Assembly: GCA_964525635.1 (NCBI GenBank)
Contig: CAZGJX010000003.1
Span: forward strand, 39,465-103,464
DNA length: 64,000 nt
Direction of reading: 5' to 3'
Source of the DNA: an uncultured archaeon
Lineage (GTDB): Archaea; Asgardarchaeota; Lokiarchaeia; Sigyniarchaeales; SOKP01
Shown: positions 41,495-62,100 of the stretch, one piece after another
How the letters are laid out: every line of letters starts with the position of its first letter
How positions within the stretch are numbered: position 1 is the first letter of the stretch
The notes under the pieces: generated by a model
Databases searched by the model: none
Told to the model about the DNA's origin: nothing
The model's input: the letters and a program-made list of their open reading frames with translations, nothing else
Made by a program: the position numbers and the translations under genes

Positions 41495-44089
41495 ATGAAT
41501 ATATTATTTGAAAAGATCTTAAAATATAAATTTGAGATCATTTGTTTTACTATATTCTTCTATTTTTTATTATATTTAAGGGTCATTACTCCTTATCACG
41601 ATACTTACTTAGAATGGAAATTTGATCCTTATCACGATACTTACTTAGAATGGAAATTTGATTGGGATTTTTATAGACTTATGTACAACGATATAACAAT
41701 TGTCTTTAACCGGGAGAACCCAGAGGTTATAGCTCCTTTTTGCTATAGGATTTTAACACCACTTGTAGTAAGATTATTTCCTTTTGAAGACATGACTTTA
41801 AACTGGGGATTATATAGTTTTATTTTTATTTATTTAACGGGTATAGTGCTTTATTTTATATTTAGAATTTATTTCAATAAATATATCTCAATGGTGGGAC
41901 TTATTTTATTCTGTTATTTGTGCTTTACCTCTCCAACGATTCCTTCATTTGGTGATAGTATATATGATTATTATTTTATGCAATACTATTTTTACATGGT
42001 TTTTCATGTTGATCCTTTAGCGTATTTTCTTTTAATGTTATGTTTCTATAGTATTTTAAAATCAAATAAAAAATTATTTTGTATTTCTCTCTTATTAGGT
42101 ATATTAACAAAAGAATCTATTCTATTCACAATTCCGGTGTATTTAATCCATGAATATTTAAAGAGAAGAAAAATCAAGAATCGAGAAAAATCAATCTATA
42201 ATTTTCTAAACGGTTTTAAACCCATAGTACCAACTATATTAATCTTTATTTTAATGAGAATTATAATTACTCCAAAATCTTCCTTAGAAGAAGTCTATTG
42301 GGATGAATACTATCAAGGAAATGAATATATGTCATTAGGAATGATAGAAGTGTTATTAAAGTATTTAATTTCCGATTATCATGATTTTGGCTGGGGTATA
42401 TTGGATTATTCAATTCTTTTTTGGAGTCCACTATTATTTATTTTATTTTGTTTTAATAAAAAGAAAGATGTCTTCAATTGGTTTAAATTATATAGTGTTT
42501 TTATAGCTGCTATATATTTTCAAATGATGATAGCAGGTGAAAGATCTCGTGCTCTCTTTTTTGGTTTTTTCCCAATACTTTTATTAGCGGTTTCTGGAGT
42601 AAATAATATTTATGAAATTATCCAAAAAAAAATCAATTATCGAAAAGCAAAAAAAGAGAATAATAACTTACCAATTAAAGAGGTTTTAATAAAAAAAGAA
42701 GAATTAATCCCATTGGATCCTATTTCACAATCCCAATTATTTTTTAAGCATCCTATTCTTCCAGAGGTACTTTATGGTGCTGTTATTTTAAGAGGGAAGT
42801 TGAAATTGGATGTATTAAATAATTCATATAAAAAAGTTATGGAAAAAAATCCTCATCTTCACGATATTTTAATTAAAAAGCGTGTGGGTGTGTTTTATAA
42901 AATATTTAGAAAACCTATTCAACCTCTCCCAATAGGAGAAATTAATTTGGTAAATTCAAATCTTCCATATCGGGAAAGATTACTTGAACATTTTAAATCT
43001 TCATTATCTAAGCATATTGATCCATTTAGAGAACCGACTTTTTATGCATATTATGTAAAATTAGATGAAAATATATTTGCTATTGCTTACATTTCTCATC
43101 ATACTACATTGGATGGAATTGGATTTGTAAATTTTTATCAGGAATTATTTTCATATTATTATAAAGAAATCTATAAAAAAGAAAGTGAGTGGTCGAAGTC
43201 AGTAGGATTTATAAGCCTTAGAGATAAAAAAAATGAGGGTAATATAAAAATGGTCCCTTTAATTAAGCCACGATTTTCAATTAAAAAAACTATAAAAACA
43301 ATAACAGTATTTTTATCATTTAGAAAAGCCCGAAAATTCACAATAAACCGTCCTTTATCTGAACTAAGCCATGCAAACCTTTTAAAAATCGAAAAAAATA
43401 CTTTAAAGAAAATAAAACAATATGGAAAATCACTTAATTCTACTGTAAATGATGTTTTATTAGCATTATTATTTAGAACACTCTTTATTATATTTCCTGA
43501 GATAGAGAATAAAAAAAAAACCCATTATACAATAAGCGTACCAATTAATATTAAGAAAAAAATATCACCTAATAAAAGGATTATAAATAACATGACAAGC
43601 CTTTTTATTAGCATAGAAGGTTCTCAATTTAGAAATGTGGAAAAGATACTTAAAATAATAAACACAACCAAGAAAAAACAAATTGAAATGGGATTAGATA
43701 TTTATCAATATCATGTTTTACGCATATTATTAAAAATCACTCAATTATTTCCCTTTAATCTAAGTCGGAAATTATTTCATAAGTTATTTCAATTCCCATT
43801 TACGTCATTATTTAGTAATTTTGGGATATTATGGCCTGAAATTGTTGATGGAGGCGTTACGGGGAAAAGTTTCTTAACAAAAATTGGAGACGAACTTGAA
43901 ATATTAGATGTAGATTTGGGTTATTCTCTACTTCCCCATATTGGACATGAATTTGTTACTTTTACTTATCGAGAGCAACTTCATATTTATCTTTCTACTT
44001 ATGATGCATTTTTTTCTAAAGAACAATCAAAAAGATTTATAGATGTATTCCATCAAGAAATAGAAAAATTATCAAATAAAAAAAGCTAA
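41495..44089 (+). CDS. fusion of a polytopic membrane domain with a condensation/WS-DGAT-like acyltransferase domain
   Basis: The N-terminal ~390 aa are hydrophobic. The C-terminal half carries ISHHTTLDGIGF (HHxxxDG) and TVNDVLLALLFRTL. Confidence 0.6.
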   Translation: MNILFEKILKYKFEIICFTIFFYFLLYLRVITPYHDTYLEWKFDPYHDTYLEWKFDWDFYRLMYNDITIVFNRENPEVIAPFCYRILTPLVVRLFPFEDMTLNWGLYSFIFIYLTGIVLYFIFRIYFNKYISMVGLILFCYLCFTSPTIPSFGDSIYDYYFMQYYFYMVFHVDPLAYFLLMLCFYSILKSNKKLFCISLLLGILTKESILFTIPVYLIHEYLKRRKIKNREKSIYNFLNGFKPIVPTILIFILMRIIITPKSSLEEVYWDEYYQGNEYMSLGMIEVLLKYLISDYHDFGWGILDYSILFWSPLLFILFCFNKKKDVFNWFKLYSVFIAAIYFQMMIAGERSRALFFGFFPILLLAVSGVNNIYEIIQKKINYRKAKKENNNLPIKEVLIKKEELIPLDPISQSQLFFKHPILPEVLYGAVILRGKLKLDVLNNSYKKVMEKNPHLHDILIKKRVGVFYKIFRKPIQPLPIGEINLVNSNLPYRERLLEHFKSSLSKHIDPFREPTFYAYYVKLDENIFAIAYISHHTTLDGIGFVNFYQELFSYYYKEIYKKESEWSKSVGFISLRDKKNEGNIKMVPLIKPRFSIKKTIKTITVFLSFRKARKFTINRPLSELSHANLLKIEKNTLKKIKQYGKSLNSTVNDVLLALLFRTLFIIFPEIENKKKTHYTISVPINIKKKISPNKRIINNMTSLFISIEGSQFRNVEKILKIINTTKKKQIEMGLDIYQYHVLRILLKITQLFPFNLSRKLFHKLFQFPFTSLFSNFGILWPEIVDGGVTGKSFLTKIGDELEILDVDLGYSLLPHIGHEFVTFTYREQLHIYLSTYDAFFSKEQSKRFIDVFHQEIEKLSNKKS
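41591..41662 (+). repeat. perfect 36-bp tandem duplication (2 copies), in frame
   Basis: ccttatcacgatacttacttagaatggaaatttgat occurs at 41591-41626 and again at 41627-41662, encoding PYHDTYLEWKFD twice. Confidence 0.95.
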
Positions 44090-45222
44090 TTTTTTTCTAA
44101 ATAGTCAGGTATATCATAATTCCATTCCTTTAAAGCAAAATCCCAATATTTCTTAACCTTTTCTATTGTAGAAATACTATATACATATTTATTCTTTTTA
44201 TAATTTGCAGTTTCTTTAAGATAGTCTTTAAAAAGAGGTTTAATATCTTCAAATCCATTCAATTTGAACTTTTGATAGATTTTTTTTAATTGCTTAATTG
44301 GATTCTCTTCTAAATCTTTAAAGGTAAGTTCAATGTAATTTTCTTCTGGAATTAAATCTTTCTCTTTTAAGAAAGTAAGCATCATATCTTTATATATCGT
44401 TATTATGTTTTTATCAATTTCTTTTTTGGAAATTGGTTGCAAATTGAGCCATGGTAATACAGAATCATATAATTTATGAGTTGACATATAAATTTCAAAA
44501 GGATTTCTATGAATATTGATAAACTTTGCGTTGGGGAATAATTCCAAGAGAATTTTTATACGAACAGTATTAGCAGGGTTCTTTATAACGAGAGACTTCC
44601 TTCTAATGTAGTATTTCGCTTTCTTTAATAACTCAAGATAAACTCTTTTCCATTCTTCCTTCACTTTGGATGGAACTTTTTTTAAACATGTGTATTTTAT
44701 ATAATTCTCTATCATTTGTTGAGGAAAATACCAACTAACATAAAATCCATAAGGACATAAACTTCCTAAAGCAAATTCATCTTCTTGTGGCTCATCAACT
44801 CCAATTTTTACATTATCTTGGGGACGTGTATCTGGCATAAAAACTTTCATCATATTTCTGAAAATTTTAAGATATATAAATGATTTTGGAAAAAAAGCTT
44901 GAGTCATTGTGACGTACCCAAATTGAGGGTCTTTACATAGTAAATTATGAAGATGAGTTGTACCACTCCTCCAATGACCTAAAATAATAACAGGATCATC
45001 TGGTAATTTAACTTTCTCAACAATTTTCTTTAATTTCTTAGATTCAAGATAACGAACTGGTATTCCAATCATATTTATAAGAACAATCCCTACTAATCTT
45101 GGAAAATATTTTTTAGATATCGTTCGATTCATGACAAGGATTCTTATTAAATTTCTCAATGAACCTCCTATAGCAGGATTTATTGATCTCTTCTTTTTCT
45201 GTTTCTTATCATTTGAAACCAT
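44086..45222 (-). CDS. PAPS-dependent sulfotransferase family protein
   Basis: Has the 5'-PSB motif GHWRSGTTHLHNLL and a 3'-PB-like IHRNPFEIYMS. Its stop overlaps the stop of the 864-aa gene by 4 nt (convergent). Confidence 0.75.
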   Translation of the reverse strand: MVSNDKKQKKKRSINPAIGGSLRNLIRILVMNRTISKKYFPRLVGIVLINMIGIPVRYLESKKLKKIVEKVKLPDDPVIILGHWRSGTTHLHNLLCKDPQFGYVTMTQAFFPKSFIYLKIFRNMMKVFMPDTRPQDNVKIGVDEPQEDEFALGSLCPYGFYVSWYFPQQMIENYIKYTCLKKVPSKVKEEWKRVYLELLKKAKYYIRRKSLVIKNPANTVRIKILLELFPNAKFINIHRNPFEIYMSTHKLYDSVLPWLNLQPISKKEIDKNIITIYKDMMLTFLKEKDLIPEENYIELTFKDLEENPIKQLKKIYQKFKLNGFEDIKPLFKDYLKETANYKKNKYVYSISTIEKVKKYWDFALKEWNYDIPDYLEKN

Positions 45223-45357: not shown

Positions 45358-46659
45358 ATGAGAAAAATAAAACCAAAAAGGATTATATATTTGGGTTTTA
45401 TACTTTTATTATTGTTTTCAAACCTCATAGCTTTTTATATTTTTAGTTATAATGATTGGTTAGAGGGATATTTTGATGTTCAAAGAAAAGAAAATGGAAA
45501 CACCCTTATTTGTAGACTTCCTTTGGCAGAAATATTTGAACATCCTAAAAGAGTGGCAAACCAAATACCAGTAAAGCCAAATAGTTCTGGTCATAAAATA
45601 TTTGAAGTTGATCAATATAAAAATGTTGTATGGGAATTCAGTGGTTTAGCATATCCTCATGATATGGAAGTGCTTCCAAATGACCATATATTAGTTGCTG
45701 ATACTGCTTATGATCGAGTTATAGAAATTAATTATCCCAACAAAGATATAGTATGGAGTTGGGAACCTGCAAAAATAAATTGGACAGAAGTAAATCCTGA
45801 GTGGATAGATAAACCTCTCTTGCCACATTATTATTTACATAATTTTACTTATGATTGGACTCATCTTAATAATGTTGAATTTAAGAATTATGGAAGCTAT
45901 GATGCATGTTTAATTTCTATAAGAAATTTTGATTTAATCGTTGAAGTAAATTATACTGCTGAAAGAATTGGGCCTTCAAACAATCCAGATAATATAATCT
46001 GGTGGTATGGAGATTATAGGAATGTTACTTTAATAAGTCGTCAGCACAATCCAATATATACAAGTTATGGTACTATTTACATTCCAGATTCAGGAAATAA
46101 CCGCATTATTGAAATAAATATGACAACTAATAAAATTATCTGGAATTATAGCAAAGGACTTGATTGGCCTAGAGGAGTGGATAAATTAGAGAATGGAAAT
46201 CTTTTAATCACAGATTCATTACATAATAGAATTATTGAGATTGAGAAGGATAGTAAGAAAATTGTTTGGAGCTATACCAGAGATTTAATTATTCCCTATG
46301 ATGCTGATAGATTAGAGAATGGAAACACGCTAATAAGTAATGGATATAGTGGAATTGTTTATGAAGTAAACAGAGCAGGGGAGATAGTTTGGCGCTATGG
46401 TCTATCCTTTGATAAGAGTATGATTTACTTAAATGTTATCATTATGCTTGGATTTTCCTCAACGGCAATTATATTTATATCAAAAGATATTATTAAAAGA
46501 AGAGAATTAACTAAATTTAGGAAAGAAATAAAGGGAATAAAGATTGGAATCTTAATTATCCCAATTATATTTAGTTTGTTAGTACTTTTTAGCTATACTA
46601 CTATTATTGGAAACTTAGTGATCGAGACTATGAAAAACATATTATTAAGTTATAGATAA
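45358..46659 (+). CDS. membrane-anchored beta-propeller protein, arylsulfotransferase (ASST)-like
   Basis: An N-terminal TM is followed by repeated blades ..D(R/N)(V/I)IEIN...IVW(S/N)(W/Y).., then DWTHLNNVEF..LISIRNFDLIVEVNY (D.tH.N...S.R motif), then C-terminal TMs. Confidence 0.55.
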   Translation: MRKIKPKRIIYLGFILLLLFSNLIAFYIFSYNDWLEGYFDVQRKENGNTLICRLPLAEIFEHPKRVANQIPVKPNSSGHKIFEVDQYKNVVWEFSGLAYPHDMEVLPNDHILVADTAYDRVIEINYPNKDIVWSWEPAKINWTEVNPEWIDKPLLPHYYLHNFTYDWTHLNNVEFKNYGSYDACLISIRNFDLIVEVNYTAERIGPSNNPDNIIWWYGDYRNVTLISRQHNPIYTSYGTIYIPDSGNNRIIEINMTTNKIIWNYSKGLDWPRGVDKLENGNLLITDSLHNRIIEIEKDSKKIVWSYTRDLIIPYDADRLENGNTLISNGYSGIVYEVNRAGEIVWRYGLSFDKSMIYLNVIIMLGFSSTAIIFISKDIIKRRELTKFRKEIKGIKIGILIIPIIFSLLVLFSYTTIIGNLVIETMKNILLSYR

Positions 46660-47924: not shown

Positions 47925-48569
47925 TTACATTATATTTCTTCCTGCTAATTCATCTTCAAGGTATTGATCTCCATAATTTTGTCTTATTTTTTCTAACCAT
48001 TCATTTGTTTTAATTTTAACCATCCCTACACGATTTCCCTTTATTTTTTCTATTGTTTTACAAACAACTCCTTCTTTTAAATTATATTTATTTTTTCTTA
48101 CAGATTCTATAAACTTTAGAGTTAAAGGTCCTTCATAAATCATTCTTGGGGTTCCAAGATGTCCAAAATCTTCAATAAATTCTTTTGGAGGTATAATTCC
48201 CTTTCCAATTGGATTTACATCAAATAATATTAAATCAAGTTCATCATCAGGATTATGTCTACCTGCAAAAGAATGTGGTCCGACCCATTCACAAAAAACA
48301 ATGGCTTTTTTTGTTTTATTATATTTAGGATTACTTTTAAAAATATATACCAATTCTTTTGCATATTTTAGCATAAACAATGAAATAGCAGCACTAAATT
48401 CTTTATGTGAAGGATTAATTATCATTCTTCGTGTACCAAATTGATACCAACCCATTTTTTTGGACCATTCAAAACGCATATTATTCCCGTCCAGTTTATC
48501 GAATGCTATTATTTCTTTACCTAGTAGTAATTTACCAACAAAATATGGAATAGATACATATTGCTTCAT
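47925..48569 (-). CDS. ATP-dependent RNA ligase-like nucleotidyltransferase (Rnl2/REL-type, adenylyltransferase domain only)
   Basis: Has motif I FDKLDGNN, III VFCEWVG, IIIa LILFDV, IV EGVVCK and V MVKIKT. Confidence 0.7.
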   Translation of the reverse strand: MKQYVSIPYFVGKLLLGKEIIAFDKLDGNNMRFEWSKKMGWYQFGTRRMIINPSHKEFSAAISLFMLKYAKELVYIFKSNPKYNKTKKAIVFCEWVGPHSFAGRHNPDDELDLILFDVNPIGKGIIPPKEFIEDFGHLGTPRMIYEGPLTLKFIESVRKNKYNLKEGVVCKTIEKIKGNRVGMVKIKTNEWLEKIRQNYGDQYLEDELAGRNIM

Positions 48570-48780
48570 TTTTCGACCATTTTAATATATATTATTAACT
48601 ACTCTTTTGGAATATCATAAAATTAACCATTAACTTATTATCATTCTATTTTGATAAGGAATTATTATTTATATTAATATTTAGTTAAAAATTTTAAGGT
48701 AATAATAAATATATTTTATACATTCAAATTTCTTAATTTTTAAATGTGTAATATGACTATTCTATTTTAAGTGATATTTT

Positions 48781-49968
48781 ATGATTAAACAATTTAATTT
48801 TACTAATATTCCCAAAATAATATTTGGCTCAGGAAAACTTCAAGAGCTTTATAAAATAATTCCAGATTTTGGGACGAATATTTTATTTGTTATTGGAAAG
48901 AGTTCTCTAAAAAATTCAGGTAAATGGAAAGAAATTACACATAACATAGAAGGAAAAGATTTTAGTTTTTCTCATGTTTCAATTTTAGGAGAACCATCTC
49001 CTTCAATTATTGATAAAATAACATCAGAACTGAGAAATAAATCAATTGATTTAATTATTGGAATAGGAGGAGGAAGTGTAATAGATGCTGGAAAAGCTAT
49101 ATCCGCTATGTTAACCAAAGAAGAGTCTATAACAAATTATTTAGAAGGTGTTGGTTATAAACAACATAATGGATCAAAATTACCATATATCGCTATCCCT
49201 ACTACATCAGGTACTGGAAGTGAGGCAACTAAAAATGCTGTAATAAGTCAAGTTGGCCCACATGGATTTAAAAAATCTCTTAGGCATGATAATTTTGTTC
49301 CGAATATCACAATTATCGATCCTGAATTAATGATCACCTGTCCATCCTCAAAAACAGCAGCTTGTGGAATGGATGCTTTCACCCAATTACTTGAAACATA
49401 TGTTTCTTCAATTGCAAATCCAATAACGGATGCTTTAGCTTTTAGTGGAATAAAAGTGATGAAAGATAATCTTATACCTGCTTGTACTTCTGGATCGAAT
49501 GATATAAATGTAAGAAGTGGGATGGCATATGGAGCTTTAATGTCAGGAATAACATTAGCAAATGCAGGTTTGGGAATAGTGCATGGATTGGCATCACCAA
49601 TAGGAGGTTTTTTCGATATTCCTCATGGTATAGTATGTGGAACTCTTTTATCTAATGCAACAAGAATTAACATAGAAAGATTAAAAGAAATAGGTCAAAA
49701 AGGAAGGAAATCCTTAAAGAAATATGCTGAAATTGGAGCATTAATTTTAAATCAATATAATGTGGAAGAAAAGAAGATAAATCATTATTTAGATACTTTA
49801 TTGAAGACATTAGATAAATGGACAAAAGATCTAAATATAGAAAGATTAGGATCTTATGGAATTACTGAAAATGATATAGATAAAATAATAAAAAATACAA
49901 GTCTGAAAAACAATCCAGTAGATTTAACAGCTAGAGATATAGAAACAATAGTAATTAATAGATTATAG
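48781..49968 (+). CDS. iron-containing alcohol dehydrogenase
   Basis: Has GIGGGSVIDAGKAI, PTTSGTGSE and the metal-binding HG..H region. Confidence 0.9.
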   Translation: MIKQFNFTNIPKIIFGSGKLQELYKIIPDFGTNILFVIGKSSLKNSGKWKEITHNIEGKDFSFSHVSILGEPSPSIIDKITSELRNKSIDLIIGIGGGSVIDAGKAISAMLTKEESITNYLEGVGYKQHNGSKLPYIAIPTTSGTGSEATKNAVISQVGPHGFKKSLRHDNFVPNITIIDPELMITCPSSKTAACGMDAFTQLLETYVSSIANPITDALAFSGIKVMKDNLIPACTSGSNDINVRSGMAYGALMSGITLANAGLGIVHGLASPIGGFFDIPHGIVCGTLLSNATRINIERLKEIGQKGRKSLKKYAEIGALILNQYNVEEKKINHYLDTLLKTLDKWTKDLNIERLGSYGITENDIDKIIKNTSLKNNPVDLTARDIETIVINRL

Positions 49969-50053
49969 ACCAATTTATAAAAAATTTTAGTAATATTTTA
50001 ATTATACCAATATATACTTAATATAGCTAATAAATATCTAAGGAATAAAAATA

Positions 50054-50155
50054 ATGAAGATGCTTCAAAATATAAAAGATAATTATAATATGAGCAATTT
50101 GGGGCAAGTTTTATCCTTAGGTTTACTTTTAAATTTACTTTTATTATTATTATAA
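50054..50155 (+). CDS. candidate leucine-rich leader peptide (33 aa) upstream of leuA/cimA
   Basis: Encodes MKMLQNIKDNYNMSNLGQVLSLGLLLNLLLLLL*. 11 of the last 14 codons are Leu (9 TTA, 2 CTT). An AGGA lies 10 nt upstream of the ATG. The ORF is too short to appear in the ORF track. Confidence 0.4.
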   Translation: MKMLQNIKDNYNMSNLGQVLSLGLLLNLLLLLL

Positions 50156-50159
50156 AGCG

Positions 50160-50214
50160 CCTTCTAATGTTTTATAAGATTTGATAATTCTACTTCTTAT
50201 AAACATCTAGAAGG
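50160..50214 (+). promoter_or_regulatory. imperfect 18-bp stem / 17-nt loop hairpin between the leader ORF and leuA/cimA
   Basis: CCTTCTAATGTTTTATAAG (50160-50178) pairs with CTTATAAACATCTAGAAGG (50196-50214) with two 1-nt bulges. The stem starts 4 nt after the leader stop codon. Confidence 0.45.
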
Positions 50215-50253
50215 TTATTGAATTAATACACAGTTTAAAGTAGGTAAAAGAAA

Positions 50254-51867
50254 ATGGTGGAAATGGATGAAATAAGTGTTTCAGGAATGATGGAAAAGAT
50301 TAGGAATACTCTTACTCTTCCGGAGAAGGCATATTTTTTTGACACAACTCTTCGTGATGGAGAACAAACACCAGGTATAAGTTTTACTCATGAAGAGAAG
50401 CTATCAATTGCCGAAGCACTTAGTAATTTAGGAATAGATATTATTGAAGCAGGATTTCCCATAACTTCTGAAGGAGATTTTACCGCTTGTAGAGATATCG
50501 CCAAGCTTGGATTGAATTCTGAGGTAATTGGATTAGCTAGAATGAAAAGAATTGATATAGACAGAGTAATAGAGGCAGACATGGACAGTATTCATGTTTT
50601 TATTTCAACTTCAGACTTACATCTAAGAGAACAAATAAAAATGACGAGAGATCAGGTAATAGACTGTATTATTGAAGAAACTACATATGCAAAAGAGCAT
50701 TATAATACAGTATTATTTTCTGCTATGGATGCGACTAGAACAGATTTAGATTATCTAATAAAAGCAAACTTAACTGCAGTTGAATGTGGTGCAACACGGG
50801 TTAATATCCCAGATACCGTTGGAACGATTACACCCACTGCTTTTGGACATATTATTAAAAAAAATTATGAAGTTTTACCTAAAAATATAAGGATTGCTGT
50901 TCATTGTCATAATGATTTTGGTCTAGCAGTTGCAAATACTATTGCTGGTTTTGAGAATGGTGCTTCTGAAGCTCAAACGGCTATCATGGGTCTTGGAGAA
51001 AGGGCTGGAAATGCCTCTTTTGAAGAGACTGCAATGTCCTTTTACGCTCTATATGGATTGCCTATGAACATTAATACAAGACTAATATTTCCAACAGCTA
51101 AATTGGTAGAGAGTTATTGTGGTGGAAAAATAAAGATTGGACGCTTGCAACCTCTAATAGGACAAAATGCTTTCGCACATGAGGCTGGAATTCATGTAGC
51201 TGGGCAGATTAAACATGCAAGAACTTTTGAACCAATAACTCCTGAATTGATAGGAATTAAAAGAACCGATAATCTAGAAGAAATAGTCAAACAATCTATA
51301 AAACTTGGAAAACATACAGGAAGTCATGGATTAAGAGCAAAATTATCTGATCTAGGATTAAATCCAACAGAAGAACAGTTTAAGAAAATCTTTGACCATG
51401 TTAAAAGTTTTGGGGATAAAGGACACGAAGTCTCAGAGGAGGATCTCTTTGCTATAGTTAAAGACGTGATGGGAGAGCTTCCAGAAGTAGAACAATATGT
51501 GATACTTGAAGAACTTACAGTCTTGACTGGTTCAGTAACTCCTACCTCAACAGTTAGATTAAGAATTAGGGACAATGGTTCCTCGATTCGTAAAACTGCT
51601 TCTTCGGTAGGAGTTGGTTCTGTTGATGCTTCTATTAAAGCAATTGTAAAATGTTTTGGACCAATGAGTAAAGTAAAACTACTTGAATATAATATTGATG
51701 CAGTTACAGGAGGGACTGAAGCATTGGGTCATGTAACAATTGAATTAATGGATCTGGATACAAATCAAATTGTAAAAACAAGTGCCACTCATGAAGATAT
51801 TGTAATGAGTTCTGTGCTTGCACTTCTTAAAGGTCTAAATCAAATAATGAAGTATAAGAGTGAATAA
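50254..51867 (+). CDS. leuA: 2-isopropylmalate synthase / (R)-citramalate synthase family
   Basis: Has FFDTTLRDGEQTPG, HCHNDFGLAVANT and a C-terminal LeuA-dimer-type regulatory domain. LeuA and CimA cannot be separated by eye. Confidence 0.9.
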   Translation: MVEMDEISVSGMMEKIRNTLTLPEKAYFFDTTLRDGEQTPGISFTHEEKLSIAEALSNLGIDIIEAGFPITSEGDFTACRDIAKLGLNSEVIGLARMKRIDIDRVIEADMDSIHVFISTSDLHLREQIKMTRDQVIDCIIEETTYAKEHYNTVLFSAMDATRTDLDYLIKANLTAVECGATRVNIPDTVGTITPTAFGHIIKKNYEVLPKNIRIAVHCHNDFGLAVANTIAGFENGASEAQTAIMGLGERAGNASFEETAMSFYALYGLPMNINTRLIFPTAKLVESYCGGKIKIGRLQPLIGQNAFAHEAGIHVAGQIKHARTFEPITPELIGIKRTDNLEEIVKQSIKLGKHTGSHGLRAKLSDLGLNPTEEQFKKIFDHVKSFGDKGHEVSEEDLFAIVKDVMGELPEVEQYVILEELTVLTGSVTPTSTVRLRIRDNGSSIRKTASSVGVGSVDASIKAIVKCFGPMSKVKLLEYNIDAVTGGTEALGHVTIELMDLDTNQIVKTSATHEDIVMSSVLALLKGLNQIMKYKSE

Positions 51868-52015
51868 TTAAATTTTATTTTTAGCTTCTCTATCTTTTTA
51901 TATTATATTTCTTGCTTTTTCAAAAAAAGAAGATATCAGAAAAATATATTCTCTATATTTAAAAATAACCATATCTTATTTCTTTACAAATAATTATAAA
52001 TTTAAATGAGAATAT

Positions 52016-53506
52016 ATGGATCCAAAAAAAAAAAAATTTTTAATTCCATTATTAGCAATTATCATAATTATTGCTATATTAATTCCTATGTTAATTATAT
52101 TATTGCAACCTCCCCCAATTAAAAATAGATTAGATGGAGATGAAGGAGTTAGAAAAGCAATTATTCTATGTAGTGCTAATGATTTCTATGGAACTGATGT
52201 AGAACTCCATTTTACAGCTGAAGGAGATTTTGGACCTGTTTGGGAACTGGAAAATGAAGGTGCTTGGAATTATGGATCGAATCCAGGTTTTGGAAATTAT
52301 ACTCCAAATGCATTATATTTCGAACCAGTAAATTCACCACCTGCATACAGTATCGCTAATTACACATATAATTATGTTGATAGAGGTAATAAGTTAATGG
52401 ATGAAAGTTTTTATATTTTGTCAGCAAGTGTTTATCTAAATACTTCAGAACCAATAATAGGACCAGGTGCACGAGTGGGAATACAATGGTTAAATGGCAG
52501 TGGTGTCGTGAGAATTGACTGGTCAAGAAATATAAATTCCACATTATATCAATGGAGATTATTAAGCGTTATGAGTCAATTTAATAATAATAGTATAGAC
52601 AATATTACAGAAATGAAACTAGTATTATCAGTTAAGGGTATTTTTATGGGAGTACCCACGGATCGTGTTTATTTTGATGATGTATTTTTAGAACGATGGG
52701 ATGCTGTTAATAAAACTGATCCTACCAATCCAAATACAAATAACTTATTGAATACTGATGGATTTCCTGCCCAAGCACTTCAAGTCTATAAGACTTTAAA
52801 GAATCATCAGTATACAGATGATAATATATTCCTTATGTTATATCATACAGGAGACGATACAATAGATATTGAAACGGGAGATGGAATTTCAAATGATTTA
52901 ACTGGAGTTATAATAGATGTAGAAAATGATGATGTTAATGCTACTAGATTCAAACAAGAGCTTAATGTTTCTGAAACCGGCTCATTTGCTTCTCAAATTA
53001 ATCCAAAAGATCAATTAATTATCTTTATGTCAGATCATGGTTCAAATGGAATACTACCTGACCGAAATGCAACATTTCATTTTGAAGCCGATCATAGTTA
53101 TATCATGGAATTAGAATTTTATAATTTAGTTAAGGATATTAATTGCACAAGAAAATTAATTAATGTTGATAGTTGTTATAGTGGAAATTTTCTAAATGAA
53201 CAGACACCAATAGGTGCTAGTTGGTATAATTTAACTAATTGTACTTATATAAGTTCTTCAGCGGACCTAGTGTCTTGGTATTGGAGCACAAATCAAAATG
53301 GTGATGGTTGGGCGGGTTCATGGTTTTTCCATCCTTTCTGGAGTCAATTAGATCAAGGTCAATCAATTTCAAATGCGTTTAATTTTGCGTTTAATTTTAT
53401 TCCTGCAGGGCATACACTACCAGTAGGTATGCGTCAATCACCATTAATATATGATAATATGGGAATAATTAATACATGGAGTTTTAACGGTCCAATCCTG
53501 CTTTAG
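52016..53506 (+). CDS. membrane-anchored clan CD cysteine peptidase, C13 (legumain/GPI8)-like, with an inserted beta-rich domain
   Basis: An N-terminal TM is followed by KAIILCSANDFYG ... LQVYKTLKNHQYTDDNIFLMLYH ... IIFMSDHGSNG (His), and 46 residues later NVDSCYSGNF (Cys). About 170 aa ending in YFDDVFLE are inserted after the first strand. Confidence 0.65.
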   Translation: MDPKKKKFLIPLLAIIIIIAILIPMLIILLQPPPIKNRLDGDEGVRKAIILCSANDFYGTDVELHFTAEGDFGPVWELENEGAWNYGSNPGFGNYTPNALYFEPVNSPPAYSIANYTYNYVDRGNKLMDESFYILSASVYLNTSEPIIGPGARVGIQWLNGSGVVRIDWSRNINSTLYQWRLLSVMSQFNNNSIDNITEMKLVLSVKGIFMGVPTDRVYFDDVFLERWDAVNKTDPTNPNTNNLLNTDGFPAQALQVYKTLKNHQYTDDNIFLMLYHTGDDTIDIETGDGISNDLTGVIIDVENDDVNATRFKQELNVSETGSFASQINPKDQLIIFMSDHGSNGILPDRNATFHFEADHSYIMELEFYNLVKDINCTRKLINVDSCYSGNFLNEQTPIGASWYNLTNCTYISSSADLVSWYWSTNQNGDGWAGSWFFHPFWSQLDQGQSISNAFNFAFNFIPAGHTLPVGMRQSPLIYDNMGIINTWSFNGPILL

Positions 53507-53618: not shown

Positions 53619-55679
53619 TTATTCGATATAAACTACCAGTAGTTCTTTTAAATTAATAAAATTTTTAAAAGAATTAACTAAATTTCCTTTTTCTAAGTCA
53701 TCTAATCCATGGTTATTCAATTTAGTAATCTTTTCTTTTAATTTTCCGTATTTGTGGAGTTCTAATAACCCATAATGATTTTTTACCTTTTCTATTGCCA
53801 TTGGACCAATATTCCATTTTATTAGATTACTTGAATTCGATTTTGTAATTTTTTTAGGCTTTATATTTTTTGGTTCAATTATAATATTTATAAAATAATT
53901 AGGGATAATATCTTCTATAACAATACTCTCTAATTGTTTTCCATATCTATTATTAAAGTGCATTTTTACATCATAATGACCTTCAATTTCTCGATTTTCT
54001 ATATTTGAATGAGTTTTTATTAAGTTAATTTGATTTTCTATAATAAAAATAATCGTTCTTGAGATTCTTTTTTGTAACTTATATGTTATTTCAAATTTTT
54101 CCTTTTTCTTTACTTCTTGAACATTCCATATTAATTCTAGTCCTGAACCCGTTAAAGTTTTTTTAGGTGATTTACCTTGATCAACAGGATTACCATTTAA
54201 TTCAATATTTGTAAGCTCAAAATTATAAGGAATAAGATCTGTTAAGATCCCTTCTTTAATAATATCATTAAAGGAGTTTTCAAAACCAGATATTACCTGA
54301 AAACTTGATATTTTATCAGATTCATTGTCATTTTCCTTTATATTTCGGATATTGATTTTTTTTTTTAACTCAATAATTTCGCCAGAAGCACTTGTAAGGA
54401 CGTATTTATTCAAAATTTCATTTTTAATCTCAACTCGATGGTGGTCTAATAATGAATTTATTTGTTTAAACATCTCTTTTTTATCATCAGATAAATCACC
54501 TACAAGTTTTTTTACGGAATATTTATCAATTATGGGTAAAATATCTTCATCTGTTTCTATTATGTTATTAAGTTCTTTAGCTTTTTCAATAAATTTTGAT
54601 ATTTGATTTTTTCTTAGCTCTTCTGATTCTTTTAAATTTGTTTTTAAATTATCAGATAATTGATTATACTTACTTTCCTTATCCTTATCTTCAATTTCCT
54701 TAACTAATTTTATTATATTTTTACAAATAGAGATTGATCTGAGGATATGATTATTATTTTGTGATTCTTCAAGTTTCTTTTCTAATTCTTGAAGATTTTT
54801 AATTTTTGTGTTATATATTTCCTCAAGAGTAGATATATCATTCTTGATATTTTCTAATTTTTTAAGTTGTTCGGGTAAATCTTTATTTTTTAATTTTTGG
54901 ATGATTGAGGTTAATTCAATTCTTGCTTCAGTATAACGCTTATTTTCTTTTAGAATCTTACATTCAGATATTACATTAGCTATATCCCTTTTTAATTGAT
55001 TTAAATCTTTAATATGGATATATCTTTCTTCGAAATTGCTCCATTTTTTGAGAATATCATCATCATATATTTCTTTCAGAAAATTTTTAGATTCATTTAA
55101 GATCTGTTCTACTGATTTAAGATCGTAAGAATCTAAAGAATTAATAATTCTTTTTTCAAGTTTAGCTAGATCCTTTTTAATAGTGTCTTGTTTCTTTTTA
55201 AATTCCTCCCAATTTTCTTTCTCTTCAATGAAAAGTGCCCTAATATCAGAAATAGATTCAAGTTTTACTTTAGTTCCATATTTTTTTTTGAAATCTATGA
55301 TCAAATTATGTGCTTGAAATATTTTCTCTTGTTCTGTTAAATTAATAAATTGAGTTTTTAATCTTTCATAAATAGTATTAATCTCTTTAGTTAATTTTCT
55401 TTTTTCTATTAATAATTCACATTTCCTAATATATTCTTCTTGTTCTTTAACAATTGATGGTAAATTGCCTTCTTTAGCAAGTTCTATTATATCCTTAGTT
55501 ACTTTTATTGCTTCTAAGAAATCTCCAAGCATAAAACAATTATTTTGAGGTATTGTTAAATCTTCAATTCTTTCGAGATATACCATTTTTTTCTTAATTA
55601 TCTTTTTCTTCTTTTTTTTTTCTATATCATACTCTTCTTCTTTATTTTCTTCTACATTATTCTCTTTCATAATCATCAC
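53619..55679 (-). CDS. long coiled-coil protein with a conserved C-terminal beta-rich module (paralog of 55680-57611)
   Basis: K/E-rich heptad-like sequence spans about aa 40-380. The C-terminal ~300 aa are collinear with the paralog (ILPII.(K/E)YSV, H(H)RV(E/K)I, L(T/I)DL(I/V)PYNFE(L/I)TNI, RRISRTII(F/Y)I). Confidence 0.5.
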   Translation of the reverse strand: MMIMKENNVEENKEEEYDIEKKKKKKIIKKKMVYLERIEDLTIPQNNCFMLGDFLEAIKVTKDIIELAKEGNLPSIVKEQEEYIRKCELLIEKRKLTKEINTIYERLKTQFINLTEQEKIFQAHNLIIDFKKKYGTKVKLESISDIRALFIEEKENWEEFKKKQDTIKKDLAKLEKRIINSLDSYDLKSVEQILNESKNFLKEIYDDDILKKWSNFEERYIHIKDLNQLKRDIANVISECKILKENKRYTEARIELTSIIQKLKNKDLPEQLKKLENIKNDISTLEEIYNTKIKNLQELEKKLEESQNNNHILRSISICKNIIKLVKEIEDKDKESKYNQLSDNLKTNLKESEELRKNQISKFIEKAKELNNIIETDEDILPIIDKYSVKKLVGDLSDDKKEMFKQINSLLDHHRVEIKNEILNKYVLTSASGEIIELKKKINIRNIKENDNESDKISSFQVISGFENSFNDIIKEGILTDLIPYNFELTNIELNGNPVDQGKSPKKTLTGSGLELIWNVQEVKKKEKFEITYKLQKRISRTIIFIIENQINLIKTHSNIENREIEGHYDVKMHFNNRYGKQLESIVIEDIIPNYFINIIIEPKNIKPKKITKSNSSNLIKWNIGPMAIEKVKNHYGLLELHKYGKLKEKITKLNNHGLDDLEKGNLVNSFKNFINLKELLVVYIE

Positions 55680-57611
55680 TTATTTTATTTTATATTCCTT
55701 AAATTGATTAATGATTTTTTCATAGAATTGTAATGTTTCTAATAAATTGCCATTATTTAAGGAATTAATACCATCTCTAGCAAGATCTTTAATGCTATTT
55801 TTTAGTTCCTCATATTTATATAATTCCATTAATCTATAGTTAAAATTAAGAACATTTTTTTCTATATTCTCGATAGACCATTTAATAATATTACCTATTT
55901 CAGTTTCATTTTGTTCTGAAGGTAATATATTTTTAGGTTCTTTAATTGAACTGATATAATACGAGGGGATAATATCTTCTATAACTAATCCATTTAATTG
56001 GTTTCCATATGAATTATTAAAAGGCATTTTTGCTTCAAATATACCCTCTAATTGAAGGGAATTTAAATTATTATGTGTATTGATTATTTTTATTTGATCG
56101 TTAAAAATATATATAATAGTTCTTGAAATTCGCCTGCGAAGTTGATAATTAATTTCGATATTTTCTTTCAGTTGGATATTTTCAAGTTTCCATTTATATT
56201 CTATTCCATCTTTAGTAAGTTGTTTATCGGGAGTTTTTTCTACTTCTTTATTATTTATTTTTATATTAGTGATCTCAAAATTATATGGGACTAAATCTAT
56301 AAGAATTGCTTCTTCAATTATCTCATCAAAGGGATTAGAAAATCCAGAATGCCCATATAATAGCAATTTTTCATTATTTTTATTTATTTTTTTTATTTCC
56401 GTGTCTTTTTCGAATTCATGAATTTCTCCTGATAAGCCAAAAAGGAATACTTTAGTTTTTATATTTTTATTTATTTTTACACGATGTTTTTCAAGTAAAA
56501 CTCCAAGTTTTTCAAGTTTCTTATTAGGTTCTTTACTTAAGTTTTCAAGAATTTCACTTACAGAGTATTCATATATTATTGGTAATGTATTCTCATTAAC
56601 CTCTATAACTTTTTTTATTTCTTTCATTTCATTGATTAATTGCTCAGATTCAATCAGTTTTTCCTTATTCTTTTCTTCTAATTCAGATTTAATTTCTTTT
56701 AGAACTAACTTATATTTTTCTTTGATCTCAGACTTTTTATGCTCTTCTGAAATGTTAATTAATTTCTCACATATTTTTAAAGCGGCATATAATTGGGATT
56801 TTTCACGATTTGTATTTAAATTTGTTTCTAGATTTTCAATCTTATTAAAAAAAACTTCATTTTTTTCTTTGAATTTTATTAAATCATTTTTTAGATTAAC
56901 AAGATTCTCTTCATAGCCTTGAATTTCGTTTTCTTGAATTAGTTTTAAAGAGTTTTCAATTTTTGACAAAATAGCATCATATTGATCTTGATTCCATGAT
57001 TTAATTAATTCTTTCTTAGAGGTTTCTATTTCATTTAGAGCTTGTTCCACTTGCTTATTTATATTCCTCCTCTTTACTTCACTGATAAAATCCTCTTGAT
57101 CAATTATGATCGATCTATCATCAAAATTTTGTGCTAACTGAATTATTTTATCTGAAATTTCAATTGCTTGGTTATATTCTTCAGAAAGGAGATATTTATC
57201 TGCTTGAGTCTTTAAATCATCTATTTCCGACATTATAGGAAATAATTTATTTTCTTGATCTTCTATTTTTTTAGTGAGCTGTTCCTTTGTTATTGTAATT
57301 CCACCAGTTTTCATACTATCAAAAAAATCTTGAGTTTCTGATTTTGCATCAATTGTTATATTTCGGAGTATTCTTAATTCAGGGTAGCTTTTCAAAAAAA
57401 TTGCTCTAACACTCGCAATATAATTTTTCAATGATTCAGATACATATTCCCCAACCCAGATATAAAGACGTTTCTGTTTGAATATATATATAGCTAAGAG
57501 GGATACAACTGAAAAATAATCGAGAATATTTTCGGGATTCTCATTTTCTTCACAACTTTCAAAACTCCCACGATATCGTAGACGAAAAATCTTTATTCCA
57601 GAGGATTGCAT
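55680..57611 (-). CDS. gelsolin-like N-terminal domain + coiled coil + C-terminal beta-rich module
   Basis: The N-terminal 100 aa read IKIFRLR..DYFSVVSLLAIYIF..KRLYIWVGEYVSESLKNYIASVRAIFLKS..ITIDAKSETQDFFDSMKTG. This parallels the gelsolin-homology pattern (IWR..F..DaYiL..lh.WlG...s.dE...AA......r..V.qg.Es..F..yFk.G). Confidence 0.5.
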   Translation of the reverse strand: MQSSGIKIFRLRYRGSFESCEENENPENILDYFSVVSLLAIYIFKQKRLYIWVGEYVSESLKNYIASVRAIFLKSYPELRILRNITIDAKSETQDFFDSMKTGGITITKEQLTKKIEDQENKLFPIMSEIDDLKTQADKYLLSEEYNQAIEISDKIIQLAQNFDDRSIIIDQEDFISEVKRRNINKQVEQALNEIETSKKELIKSWNQDQYDAILSKIENSLKLIQENEIQGYEENLVNLKNDLIKFKEKNEVFFNKIENLETNLNTNREKSQLYAALKICEKLINISEEHKKSEIKEKYKLVLKEIKSELEEKNKEKLIESEQLINEMKEIKKVIEVNENTLPIIYEYSVSEILENLSKEPNKKLEKLGVLLEKHRVKINKNIKTKVFLFGLSGEIHEFEKDTEIKKINKNNEKLLLYGHSGFSNPFDEIIEEAILIDLVPYNFEITNIKINNKEVEKTPDKQLTKDGIEYKWKLENIQLKENIEINYQLRRRISRTIIYIFNDQIKIINTHNNLNSLQLEGIFEAKMPFNNSYGNQLNGLVIEDIIPSYYISSIKEPKNILPSEQNETEIGNIIKWSIENIEKNVLNFNYRLMELYKYEELKNSIKDLARDGINSLNNGNLLETLQFYEKIINQFKEYKIK

Positions 57612-59173: not shown

Positions 59174-62100
59174 TTGACGGTCATAGAAGGAAAATACGCA
59201 TATCCATATATAACAGTATTCAAGAAAGAACCTTTTCAATCCTTTCTTACTGTAAAAAAACAAGATATAGGATTATTTTATTTTAGTCAATATGAGAAGG
59301 TTTTAGAATTTTTGAATTATTTTACAGAGAATCTCTTTTTTATTCAATCATTAAATCTTGAAGATATTTATTGGTATTTATTATTGAAGAAATATTTAAA
59401 CGTGACTATAGAACCAGGTATTAAAGCAAAGATTTATGATTTTATTAAGGGTTGTGAAATAGATAAAGATGGAAAATTAGGATTTAAATTCTCTCTTCAT
59501 AAGGAACAAAAACAACCAGATATTTGGTCAACTTATTTAGCGATTTCAAATCTTTATTTATTGGGTGATCTTAGTTTATATCTTAAAACTAAAGGAGAAG
59601 GTATTGTTTTAACTCAAATAAAAGATTTTATTTCTTTACTTGATAAAGGAGATAAGTTCATACACTGTCTTGAAAAAGATTGTGAAATTTGTAAAAAAAA
59701 CCTATCTTATAAAACGTTATATTATGTCTTAGAAATTTTATTTTTATTAAATCTGGAAGTTAGAGAACATAAATCTAAATTTTCATCATATTTAAAGGAT
59801 TTGAAAAAAGATCCTTCTATAATTTTTAAATTATTAAGTCTTAAATTTTTGGATCTCGATCTTAATATTGATGAGAAATTTCTTCATTATTTGCTTGATT
59901 TTCAAAAAGATAATGGAGGTTTTAGTTTTAAAACTGTCAATGGGAAGGTTAATACGACCTTTTGGATAACCTATGTTTTAAACAATTATATATGGCTAAT
60001 GGATTATAATCCTTCAGGAATATATTCATTCATTAATTTACATTTAAATCAAATACTAAAAGATAAATCTTCTTGCTCCTCGAAAAGACTAATAGAAGTC
60101 TCAAAACTAATCATTATCCTTTCTATAATTTGGGATAAATTAATTGAAGAAATTGAGTCTGTATTATTCAAACAAATTGAAGAAAATAGATATATTGATA
60201 TTAAACAATTAAAAAACTCGTTTGGATTATCTGAAGGAATAGAAGAAATTGTGTCATATATTAATTTAAATTATTCGTTTAATCTTAAGATACTAGATAA
60301 TAATATAGAATTCAAGAATTATTTGAGAAGTCTTACCCCAGGAGATAAGTTTCTAGCTTCTGAAGTTTTTAACCAAAGTCAAAAAAAGAGTATAATCTCT
60401 TTGACGAATATTATGAATAAATACAATATGAAATACAATAAAGCGCAAATTAAAATAAAAGATTTTATCCCAATCATAAAAAAAATGATTGAAAATCATT
60501 TGTTAAAGGGTGAAATAAAGACTAAGAAAAAATATCTCTTTGTAACCAAATACTATTTTTATTTAGATTTTGTTTTAGAAAAAATAATAATCTCAGATAT
60601 GGCTATAAAATGCGAGCAATTATTCGAAGAAAAGAAGATCATTGAGGACATTAAAAATGATATTTATAATATGACTCTTAAACTTAAAACTACGGTTTCA
60701 CAAATTAAGGAGGAAATCGAAAGTTATTTATTAATTAATGAGATAAAAATAGCTAAAGATAGGTTAAAATTTATTACTAGAAATGCTCTTATGGAATCCG
60801 ATTTTTTGAATGAAAATATAGAAAACTCATTTAATGAAGAGTTATATTATATCAATATTCAAGCAACTTTAAGATCTGAAATAACTAATTGGCACAAAAC
60901 TTACTCTGTTTTAAGTAAAAGAATAAATAATATTGAATTGCAATTAAAAGAGAAAATATCTGAGAGAGAAGAAATTAGTAAGTTTGACAATATATTAGAT
61001 GAATTGGATAATAAGCTTAGTAATTTAGAAAATTATTTTAATAAGGAGATTGATAGTTTTCGTATATTTTTAACCACAACACTAGAAGATGGCTATAATT
61101 CTGAGAAATTTAATTTGATAGTGGAAGAATTCAATAAGATCATAAAAAGTATGGCAAAATTTGATAGTGTAATTTATAATGTTTCTCAACAAATTACAAA
61201 AAAGGAAGAAAGTCTGCTTAAAAAACATAAACAATTAATATCCTATTGGATTGGTATTAAAGAGGATCTAGATAAAGTAATTAATTTTTATTCCGAAGGT
61301 TTGCTCTTTTTTAAAGAGAAAATTAAATTAACTGAGAAAATACTTGATGAAGTAAAATATGAACTCTTAGCGATAAATGAAAAAGCACAAGAAAAAGTTA
61401 GAACGAATGACTTTCAAAATGCATTTGAAATTATCAAAAAGGAATCAGGGATACTTTTAGAAAAAAATCTTGAAGAAATAAAAACACTTCATAAAGAAGT
61501 AAAAAAAGAAATAAAATCAAAACATAAGCTCTATATACTTTTTCGATTTCTACAAGAAAAGATAGAAGAGTTAGAAGAAAAAATAATTGAAATTATCTCT
61601 AAGGGAACTTATTCTTTAAAAGAAAAATTAGTTGAAGAGAGAAATAGAGTAAAAATTGAAGAATTTGATAATTTTGTTTCTGAAAAAATTAGTTTAATTA
61701 GAAAAGGTCTAACAGATTATAAAATTCAATTAGAACATACAATTAAAACATCAAAATTAGATATTCAAGATGTTATAAAGGGTTTTGATGATATCTTAAA
61801 TGAATTCGAGGAATTTAACTCAATATATCTAAAGAAATTAAATAAGAATCAGGATATCATAGAAAAGATAGATGAAAAATCAAATCTTACAGTTATGCAA
61901 TGGGAAAGGTTCCGCGAATACGTTAGAAATGAAATAACAAACTTGAAAGAAGAATACATAAATGAAATTCTTAGCGTGAAAATTCTTTTTATAGCTGAAA
62001 ATAAAGGTTCAAATTATGTGAATATAAAAGAACTTGCGAGAAAGTTGAATATAAAATGTAAGGAAGCTAGTGACAGAATTAGGGAAATGATTGAAATCTC

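Follow-up and report, generated by a model that had tools for sequence, protein, structure and literature searches.

A conserved leucine-codon leader ORF and RNA hairpin upstream of leuA in Loki-type Asgard archaea: a candidate ribosome-mediated leucine sensor

Can an archaeon sense leucine through the progress of a ribosome along the leader of leuA? The question is raised by a 64,000-nucleotide stretch of contig CAZGJX010000003.1 (hereafter the window, meaning the whole stretch that was analysed) from an Asgard archaeon (Promethearchaeota, Loki-type; window GC about 27%, 22-30%). In it, the gene for 2-isopropylmalate synthase, leuA, is preceded by a short open reading frame (ORF) that ends in a run of leucine codons, and the stop codon of this ORF is followed almost immediately by a stand-alone hairpin, P2. 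From the comparison of sequences, the Leu-codon leader peptide and the hairpin are well supported as a regulatory leader of leuA. The best explanation, to which we give a probability of roughly 0.55, is in our view that the 5' leader of the leuA mRNA acts in cis as a ribosome-mediated leucine sensor; it would be an archaeal counterpart of leader-peptide attenuation that is built differently. The parts of the leader and the gene it precedes are:

50041-50044, + strand: AGGA, a Shine-Dalgarno (SD)-like motif 9 nt upstream of the leader ATG
50054-50155, + strand: leader ORF of 33 codons plus stop (ATG 50054, TAA 50153-50155), encoding MKMLQNIKDNYNMSNLGQVLSLGLLLNLLLLLL
50111-50152, + strand: run of Leu codons abutting the stop codon, 11 of 14 in total and without interruption over the final six
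50159-50215, + strand: P2, a stand-alone hairpin beginning 3 nt past the leader stop, with a GC-rich base (CCUUC/GAAGG)
50216-50253, + strand: A-rich linker of 38 nt, holding the leuA SD (AGGU) at 50242-50245
50254-51867, + strand: leuA, 2-isopropylmalate synthase (NF002085, 568 bits, cutoff 517; Pfam HMGL-like, HCS_D2, LeuA_dimer)

An earlier note on this DNA, made from the letters alone, had pointed out most of these parts, and their description holds. The translation agrees with a 33-codon ORF containing 13 Leu, 11 of them in the last 14 codons; the AGGA upstream of it is present; the fold confirms the hairpin that the note had placed at 50160-50214, which ends 38-39 nt before the leuA ATG; and the downstream gene, read as an isopropylmalate or citramalate synthase, is a 2-isopropylmalate synthase that scores above the NF002085 cutoff. 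The LeuA protein carries the LeuA_dimer regulatory domain. The spacer that bears the leader is bordered upstream by a Fe-alcohol-dehydrogenase gene (48781-49968), and leuA is probably monocistronic in the window, since three T5 runs follow its 3' end within 55 nt.

A leucine-codon run tied to leuA in two archaeal clades

The Leu run stands out sharply from the surrounding sequence. Among 2,439 comparable 14-codon open windows before a stop codon, collected in six frames of the window, the leader ORF with its 11 Leu codons is the sole outlier; the runner-up has 8, and the next has 7. Leu accounts for 10.8% of the codons in the window's genes, and TTA, which the earlier note had cautioned was probably the commonest codon, is only the fifth commonest at 5.8%. 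The other short ORFs of the window lack a comparable run of any amino acid. A search of 22 related loci (∼150 kb, both strands) for at least 8 identical residues before a stop codon recovered only three sites besides 18 of the 22 leuA leaders; the remaining four leaders are either truncated by a contig end (L001, L015) or have weaker runs (L012, L024). The run is thus an outlier in the window, and runs of at least 8 residues are rare outside the leuA leaders of the relatives, which answers the earlier note's call to examine how frequent such runs are elsewhere. AT-rich low complexity as the cause of the run is ruled out by the six-frame null in the window together with the related loci.

The closest leuA loci in a species-level genome collection all belong to metagenome-assembled genomes (MAGs) of Promethearchaeota/Promethearchaeia, that is, Loki-type Asgard archaea, with 72-90% LeuA identity. 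The host is therefore archaeal, the case in which the earlier note had called the locus notable. Our Loki-type set comprises 23 leuA loci, of which 21 have enough upstream DNA and two (L001 and L015) are truncated at a contig end, with the 3' end of the leader still visible. The next LeuA relatives beyond this set have at most 43% identity. In a protein search with the window's LeuA, the relatives among the matches listed all had at least 73% identity, so that Asgard lineages of intermediate LeuA identity lie outside the sample.

All 23 Loki-type loci have a terminal Leu run, and in all 23 a hairpin begins 0-3 nt past the stop codon (0-6 nt from the first base of the stop). The conservation of run and stem before leuA orthologs, which the earlier note had proposed as a check, is therefore complete in this set. 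An ATG-started leader ORF of 32-39 codons is present in 21 of 21 relatives with enough upstream DNA, and in most relatives a GGA, AGGA or GGAT motif lies 6-12 nt 5' of the leader ATG. Across the relatives the leader frame contains no stop in 727 codons, against 100 and 41 stops in the other two frames. The N-terminal two thirds of the leader peptide are unconserved, and the C-terminus is a Leu run reaching the stop, for example ...SLGLLLNLLTLLLLLL and ...PLELLSLLLLLLL. UUA occupies codons -3, -2 and -1 of the leader in 18, 22 and 21 of the 23 loci, respectively, while the other positions of the runs also hold the synonymous codons UUG, CUU, CUC, CUA and CUG. The Leu run is the only conserved coding feature of the ORF. 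In Loki-type genomes the gene after the leader is leuA, either alone or with leuC (present 3' of leuA on the same strand in about half of the relatives), with no ilvB nearby, and the leader stays linked to leuA even though the upstream synteny and the flanking genes differ among the relatives. At one locus (L002, ∼2551-2650), the DNA 5' of the leader also contains a tRNA-like 3' half (…GGTTCAAATCCCTCCCGTTGCGC).

A leader of the same design was found in a second, unrelated archaeal clade. At locus L026, with 43% LeuA identity, the leader region (2817-2965) encodes MPEQKQIKSISKILLVLLLVLVLL, and its stop codon is followed at once by a hairpin, GCCCU...AGGGC. The LeuA relatives of this locus are labelled Nanoarchaeota/Woesearchaeota in NCBI; together with seven loci at no less than 70% identity (L082-L086, L167, L168) it makes up a DPANN-labelled clade of eight. 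The seven further loci have an ORF of 22-41 codons ending in a Leu/Val run that abuts the stop. In this clade the leader lies ∼120-290 nt 5' of leuA and a GC-clamped hairpin begins 0-2 nt past the stop; downstream of it come an SD (AAGGUGA) and then a leuA-ilvB operon, the Leu and Val leader being present in 8/8 loci. A TATA box lies 22-25 nt 5' of the leader ATG, and at this distance the leader ORF would be the first item translated, on an apparently leaderless transcript. In 4/8 loci, U runs (AUUUUUCUUUUUAU) come ∼10 nt after the hairpin; they resemble archaeal terminators and can instead pair with a downstream purine tract.

The gap between stop codon and hairpin is thus 0-3 nt in two unrelated archaeal clades. 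The run consists of Leu alone where leu genes follow and of Leu and Val where leuA-ilvB follows, which means that the sensor codons match the pathway, as they also do in the leu and ilvBN leaders of bacteria. We regard this codon-pathway match, arrived at twice independently, as the strongest argument that the run may sense amino-acid supply through the ribosome.

The second clade also bears on a different reading of the ORF, namely that it encodes a small hydrophobic protein that has its own function, P2 being the 3' end or a stabiliser of its transcript, without any link to the regulation of leuA. Such a protein would have the hydrophobic C-terminus, the SD and the promoter-like box that are seen here. 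It would also agree with the gene callers: an automatic caller predicts the leader ORF in one public assembly, and the peptide is found, unnamed, in the NCBI/JGI/Logan protein sets. We nevertheless consider it very improbable. Only Leu is enriched (Leu and Val in the second clade), and not Ile, Phe or Met, which would be as easy or easier to accumulate at 27% GC. The lack of conservation in the N-terminal two thirds speaks against a functional protein, as do the linkage to leuA amid changing flanks and the recurrence of the arrangement with operon-matched residues in an unrelated clade. Finally, no terminator follows P2, and the SD of leuA points to a leadered read-through mRNA.

Several further observations were made on and around these loci. 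In three DPANN-clade loci the sequence TTTATAAA stands exactly 23 nt 5' of the leuA ATG, which hints at a second promoter. Two more distant leuA-leuB loci have no leader, and a metagenome scan with the DPANN LeuA alignment gave a mixed set at 48-63% identity, without taxonomy, which was uninformative. Leu-rich short ORFs also occur 5' of leuA at bacterial loci of Planctomycetota with 39-40% identity (L032, L036, L045, L046, L048, L050, L072), one of them ending in ...SLLLLGLLLTR before the stop; these are presumably classical attenuators. They raise the question of whether the archaeal leaders were acquired together with a transferred leuA or had an independent origin.

A conserved RNA hairpin at the stop codon

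The arms of P2 (50160-50179 and 50195-50214) are joined in the minimum free energy (MFE) fold by one additional G-U pair, which extends the hairpin to 50159-50215, or 57 nt. It folds at -20.1 kcal/mol (z = -4.97), none of 200 dinucleotide shuffles folds as well, and the antisense strand reaches -16.6 kcal/mol. These energies were computed at 37 °C and may differ for the AU-rich RNA of cold-sediment organisms; folding at 15 °C gave the same picture. The Loki-type hairpins are 48-67 nt long (84 nt in L016, where the fold extends), and when the stretch from the stop to leuA is folded, z lies below -2 in 19/23 loci. The bases of the arms vary from locus to locus: CCUUC/GAAGG, CCCUC/GAGGG, UCUCU/AGAGA.

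With all 23 leaders aligned by MAFFT, the hairpin was misaligned and RNAalifold recovered no structure; an eight-sequence seed, a covariance model (CM) and a model-guided alignment overcame this. On the seed, RNAalifold finds 17 pairs, 7 of which show compensatory changes. The seed CM matches the sense strand at the leuA leader in 22/23 loci (weakly in L014; L007 was missed), gives 82.7 bits for the sense strand compared with 31 for the antisense strand, and has only one other match passing E = 1 in 234 kb, which is marginal (E 0.71, in L017). Eighteen sequences make up the model-guided alignment, in which 89.6% of cells are paired and 15/17 pairs have changed on both sides, counts that do not represent independent events. 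None of 500 shuffles reaches any of the five measures of covariation, and slid controls are 49-59% paired; the figures for P2 are somewhat inflated, since the alignment was fitted to the structure. A test of the arms independent of this alignment gives the same answer: cognate arms pair at -19 to -20 kcal/mol and non-cognate arms at -11 to -12, with the cognate partner at rank 1.

The inverted repeat lies between a promoter-like box and leuA, and Lrp-family regulators commonly control archaeal amino-acid genes. It could for this reason be taken for a DNA palindrome bound by a dimeric regulator, for example of the Lrp type, with the ORF being incidental. Our data make this reading extremely unlikely. 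The sequences of the arms drift while their pairing is kept, and 42 of the 299 paired cells (14%) are G-U, a combination that would count as a mismatch both in DNA and on the opposite strand. Because of these G-U pairs and the better folding of the sense strand, which is also seen in the CM scores, we take P2 to be an RNA structure on the mRNA strand and not a DNA operator. Bulged arms of 20 nt are moreover unlike operators, and a palindrome leaves the Leu run unexplained.

The remaining parts of the leader are a candidate promoter and a second hairpin, P1, inside the ORF:

49974-49984, + strand: TATA/BRE-like box TTTATAAAAAA at -80, identified by motif only; candidate promoter of the leader-leuA transcript
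50061-50106, + strand: P1, in the MFE fold, UGCUUCAAA (50061-50069) pairing with UUUGGGGCA (50098-50106) within the leader ORF, just 5' of the Leu-rich stretch

A corresponding box, GAAAnTTTTTAA/TTTATAA (purine-rich followed by TTTTTAA or TTTATAA), is found 53-64 nt 5' of the leader ATG in 17/21 relatives, and a second TATA-like box of the relatives lies at -31 to -40 from the leader ATG. We rejected the TATA-like TTTAAATA, 19 nt 5' of the leuA ATG, as a promoter of leuA, as its predicted start falls inside the conserved N-terminal coding region. P1 is weaker than P2 and is absent in L003 and L019. Its cognate duplex energy is -10.6, compared with -8.2 for non-cognate partners and -6.7 for shuffles (median cognate rank 4/21), and compensatory variants occur in the relatives (ACGCUUC/GAAGCGU, ACACUUC/GAAGUGU, CCUCAGA/UCUGAGG). 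The linker is 30-43 nt long in 18/21 relatives and is unpaired when the stretch from stop to ATG is folded alone; a conserved AAAUUUAAAUAGGU context directly precedes the leuA ATG. The leader ORF and leuA both have an SD, unlike most genes of the window, and that of leuA is conserved, as would be expected of an internal cistron on a leadered read-through mRNA. No SD-like motif was found within 18 nt of the start in 26/44 window genes (for example those at 12482, 15243, 16000, 22131 and 45358), which suggests that many transcripts of the window are leaderless or SD-independent.

Possible routes from ribosome position to leuA expression

The leader could in principle act on translation. The U-rich Leu run would pair with the purine-rich SD and AUG of leuA, P2 would be the apical clamp of one long hairpin, and a ribosome stalled in the run would free the SD. 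In the window this is exactly what the MFE fold looks like: the leuA SD pairs with the Leu run with a probability of 0.92, and the leuA initiation region opens at a cost 4.4 kcal/mol lower once the run is masked. In length, the linker (30-43 nt) is also close to the Leu-rich stretch (42 nt), no terminator would be necessary, in agreement with the absent oligo-U, and the architecture is like that of the mycobacterial short ORF (sORF) Ms5788A, with a run at the 3' end of the ORF, a spacer of ∼97 nt and pairing between run and SD (bioRxiv 10.1101/834739).

The agreement does not extend to the family. The mean pairing between SD and run is 0.36 over the relatives, compared with 0.45 when the codons are permuted, and the pairing of the leuA SD, 0.58, equals that of other window genes. 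Duplexes of run and linker reach -8.8 for cognate pairs, -9.35 for non-cognate pairs and -8.5 with unrelated initiation regions. Masking the run gains a mean of 0.5 kcal/mol over the family and is negative in several loci; the DPANN loci are inconsistent too, with pairing from 0.00 to 0.64. Sequestration of the leuA SD by the Leu run was therefore rejected as a conserved feature, being not above the codon-permuted, non-cognate and other-gene controls. It would also leave the gap of 0-3 nt between stop and P2 unexplained. A generic complementarity between U-rich and purine-rich RNA may contribute; it is not what selection kept, and we consider occlusion of the ribosome-binding site an unlikely account of the leader.

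In the reading that we prefer, what matters is where the ribosome stands relative to P2. Downstream of the A site, about 12-15 nt are protected by a ribosome, so that one located at the stop codon or on the last one to three Leu codons would melt the GC-rich base of P2, while one stalled further upstream would not. In the leucine sensor that we propose, the speed of the ribosome through the Leu run would report on charged tRNA-Leu, and its position would decide whether P2 folds. The earlier note had reasoned similarly that a ribosome at the stop covers the hairpin and one stalled on Leu codons does not; this stands for a stall at the early Leu codons, which leaves the hairpin free, and fails for a stall on the last two or three, which also covers its base.

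How the state of P2 would be turned into expression of leuA is a separate matter, and here our preference is tentative. We favour a race whose sign is that of classical attenuation. When Leu is ample, the pioneer ribosome would keep pace with the polymerase, reach the stop and cover the 5' base of P2 during synthesis of the 3' arm. That arm, which is pyrimidine-rich, and the linker would then stay single-stranded behind a polymerase that has no following ribosome, and the transcript would be ended by archaeal factor-dependent termination (FttA/aCPSF1) or otherwise lost. With scarce Leu, the ribosome would stall upstream in the run and P2 would fold at once, exposing 30-43 nt of A-rich RNA before the leuA SD, on which a new ribosome would load and express leuA. 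P1 may limit translation of the leader to the first, co-transcriptional ribosome. FttA/aCPSF1 requires ∼36 nt of single-stranded nascent RNA (-1 to -36), U-rich at -30 to -36 (PMC11616081), and is a plausible executor of the output step. We count in favour of this output the single-stranded RNA need of FttA, the constrained length of the linker and the T5-T10 runs that lie within 90 nt of gene 3' ends in 18/44 window genes. Pyrimidine-rich tracts are present, by eye, inside the 3' arm of P2 in most Loki-type loci. The output step could be transcription termination, translation or stability.

The opposite sign should be considered as well. Here P2 would be a negative element, whether by signalling a pause or termination, by being cleaved or by forming a barrier, and Leu-limited ribosomes on the last UUA codons would open its base and turn leuA on. 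That the run abuts the stop in 23/23 Loki-type and 8/8 DPANN-clade leaders, with near-invariant UUA as the last codons, is what such a terminal stall predicts; with P2 0-3 nt past the stop, a ribosome with its A site on the last one to three Leu codons reaches the GC clamp, and the U runs past the hairpin in half of the DPANN-clade loci are terminator-like. A starved ribosome, however, should stop first at the early Leu codons, 30-40 nt upstream, leaving P2 untouched, and the sign is wrong for a co-transcriptional decision. The Loki-type leaders have no U-tract, and the DPANN U runs may pair with the downstream purine tract instead. In addition, the leuA initiation region is equally open with P2 closed and with a ribosome at the stop (2.86 vs 3.09 kcal/mol), so that no translational effect is predicted from the state of P2. 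Taken together, these points make control by a terminal stall rather improbable.

The classical components of an attenuator were tested separately. A cognate pairing signal was obtained only for P2 (3:4) and weakly for P1 (1:2), and none for 2:3, 1:4 or 2:4. As antiterminators we rejected both the pairing of the pre-Leu region with the 5' arm of P2 and that of the leader start with its 3' arm, and likewise the pairing of either P2 arm with the linker and SD or with the 5' coding region of leuA; none of these gave a cognate signal. Nor is the leader a known RNA family: Rfam (Leu_leader, T-box, riboswitches) gave no match at gathering score in the 64-kb window, and on 49850-50400 it returned only chance-level matches (E >= 4) to unrelated families.

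Several of our results weigh against the leucine sensor or against its favoured output. Cognate versus non-cognate duplex tests in the relatives detect no terminator/antiterminator alternative, and because of this the step from a folded P2 to leuA on or off is one that we can only infer. A terminator scan of 48500-52500 returned 0 terminator-like sites. There is no conserved oligo-U past P2, with at least five T within 15 nt in only 2/23 leaders, and the 12-nt tail after P2 is 33% T, which is background level; the caveat of the earlier note that no clear oligo-T follows the stem is thus borne out in the other 21 loci. The compensatory changes in P2 are mostly C-G to U-G to U-A, and the conserved pyrimidine-to-purine polarity of the hairpin could be mutational and not selected. 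The time for which a terminating ribosome holds P2 open may be short, and a terminal stall would account at least as well for the near-invariant UUA of the last three codons. Every relative is a metagenome-assembled genome. To our knowledge FttA is uncharacterised in Asgard archaea, and its link to this leader is our own deduction. With no alternative pairing signal, almost no oligo-T and no Rfam match, the part of the earlier note that saw here the geometry of bacterial leu, trp and his attenuators is unsupported, while its reading of the Leu-codon ORF and hairpin as a regulatory leader of leuA is well supported.

Elsewhere in the window, the trp genes (228-7081) have no Trp-rich leader ORF in the 227 nt upstream that lie within the window or in the trpB-trpA gap. 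Their order is trpD-trpC-trpF-trpB, a 174-nt gap and trpA-trpE-trpG; a 70-codon ORF without Trp lies upstream at 15-227, and the gap holds a 28-codon ORF (4026-4112) ending in ...VIVKLSGSG, possibly a remnant of the TrpB C-terminus. The gene after leuA (52016-53506) encodes a peptidase C13 (legumain/caspase-like) family protein, and no other gene of the window has a predicted initiation region as structured as this one's (pairing 0.94-0.97). At 41495-45222 and 45358-46659, an 864-aa condensation-domain protein (NRPS-type, PF00668) adjoins a sulfotransferase and an NHL/arylsulfotransferase-like protein, a group that resembles a secondary-metabolite cluster and is unusual for an Asgard archaeon. 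Three large ORFs of 686, 643 and 1,475 aa (53619-57611 on the - strand and 59174-63601 on the + strand) have no Pfam match at E <= 1e-5.

Comparison with known leader systems

Leader-peptide attenuation is the textbook case of regulation by coupled transcription and translation and is treated as a bacterial speciality. Archaea couple transcription and translation as well, and we know of no established regulatory use of this coupling in them. In a full-text literature search of incomplete coverage we found no archaeal or Asgard leader-peptide attenuator, and a review of archaeal transcription-translation coupling leaves attenuation unmentioned. It is possible, though we would not put it higher, that archaea possess ribosome-mediated attenuation without a terminator/antiterminator switch, in which a ribosome-gated hairpin decides whether FttA/aCPSF1 or an equivalent stops the transcript before leuA, in both Asgard and DPANN-labelled genomes and with codons tuned to the operon. 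If this is true, archaea, and among them the closest known relatives of eukaryotes, would for the first time be shown to regulate a gene through the coupling of transcription and translation. A conserved, covarying and pathway-matched leader in two archaeal lineages makes archaeal attenuation directly testable. Having no classical terminator, the leader may shed light on how RNA structure and ribosome occupancy are read by archaeal termination or RNA surveillance. It also provides a rule for annotation: to seek runs of a single amino acid that end at a stop codon and are followed by a hairpin.

The nearest counterparts are the bacterial attenuators (leuL of E. coli and Salmonella; his, trp, pheA, ilvBN, ilvGMEDA). 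They likewise have a short ORF between the promoter and the first biosynthetic gene, enriched in codons of the end product (here Leu, and Leu and Val before leuA-ilvB as in ilvBN), with an RNA structure directly 3' and a stop whose position lets a terminating ribosome cover the 5' strand of the following helix. The archaeal leaders differ in their host, in lacking the exclusive 1:2, 2:3 and 3:4 pairings, in lacking a terminator of hairpin plus U-tract, and in having no Rfam match. The leuL leader of E. coli has 4 Leu codons; the run of the leuA leader is far longer (11/14 codons) and abuts the stop. The sensing part resembles that of a bacterial leader-peptide attenuator, while two features that define the family, the terminator and the alternative structures, are missing.

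The mycobacterial polycysteine sORF Ms5788A (bioRxiv 10.1101/834739) shares with these leaders a sensor run in the 3'-terminal part of the sORF, ∼100 nt of spacer before the regulated gene and the absence of an intrinsic terminator. Ms5788A is leaderless, as predicted for the transcript that carries the DPANN-clade leader ORF, and the run in the window is predicted to pair with the downstream SD. In contrast to Ms5788A, the pairing of run and SD in archaea is no better than in controls, the conserved element is a stand-alone hairpin adjacent to the stop, and the domain of life and the amino acid are different. Rho-dependent leader ORFs (tnaC of E. coli; mgtL/mgtP and corL of Salmonella) resemble the archaeal leaders in that the position of a ribosome near the end of the ORF gates the access of a termination factor, without an intrinsic terminator. 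Here, the factor would be FttA/aCPSF1 in place of Rho, and sensing would proceed by codon run and tRNA charging and not by peptide or ligand arrest of the tnaC type.

There is also a likeness to the upstream ORFs (uORFs) of eukaryotes (GCN4, ATF4, the arginine attenuator peptide), in which an upstream ORF sets the expression of an amino-acid-related main ORF. Those act through cap-dependent scanning and reinitiation or through peptide arrest, whereas in the archaeal leader both ORFs have an SD of their own and the sensor would be a run of codons. Since eukaryotes have their closest known relatives in the Asgard archaea, the likeness is of interest, and the leader bears on the question of whether control of the uORF type predates eukaryotes.

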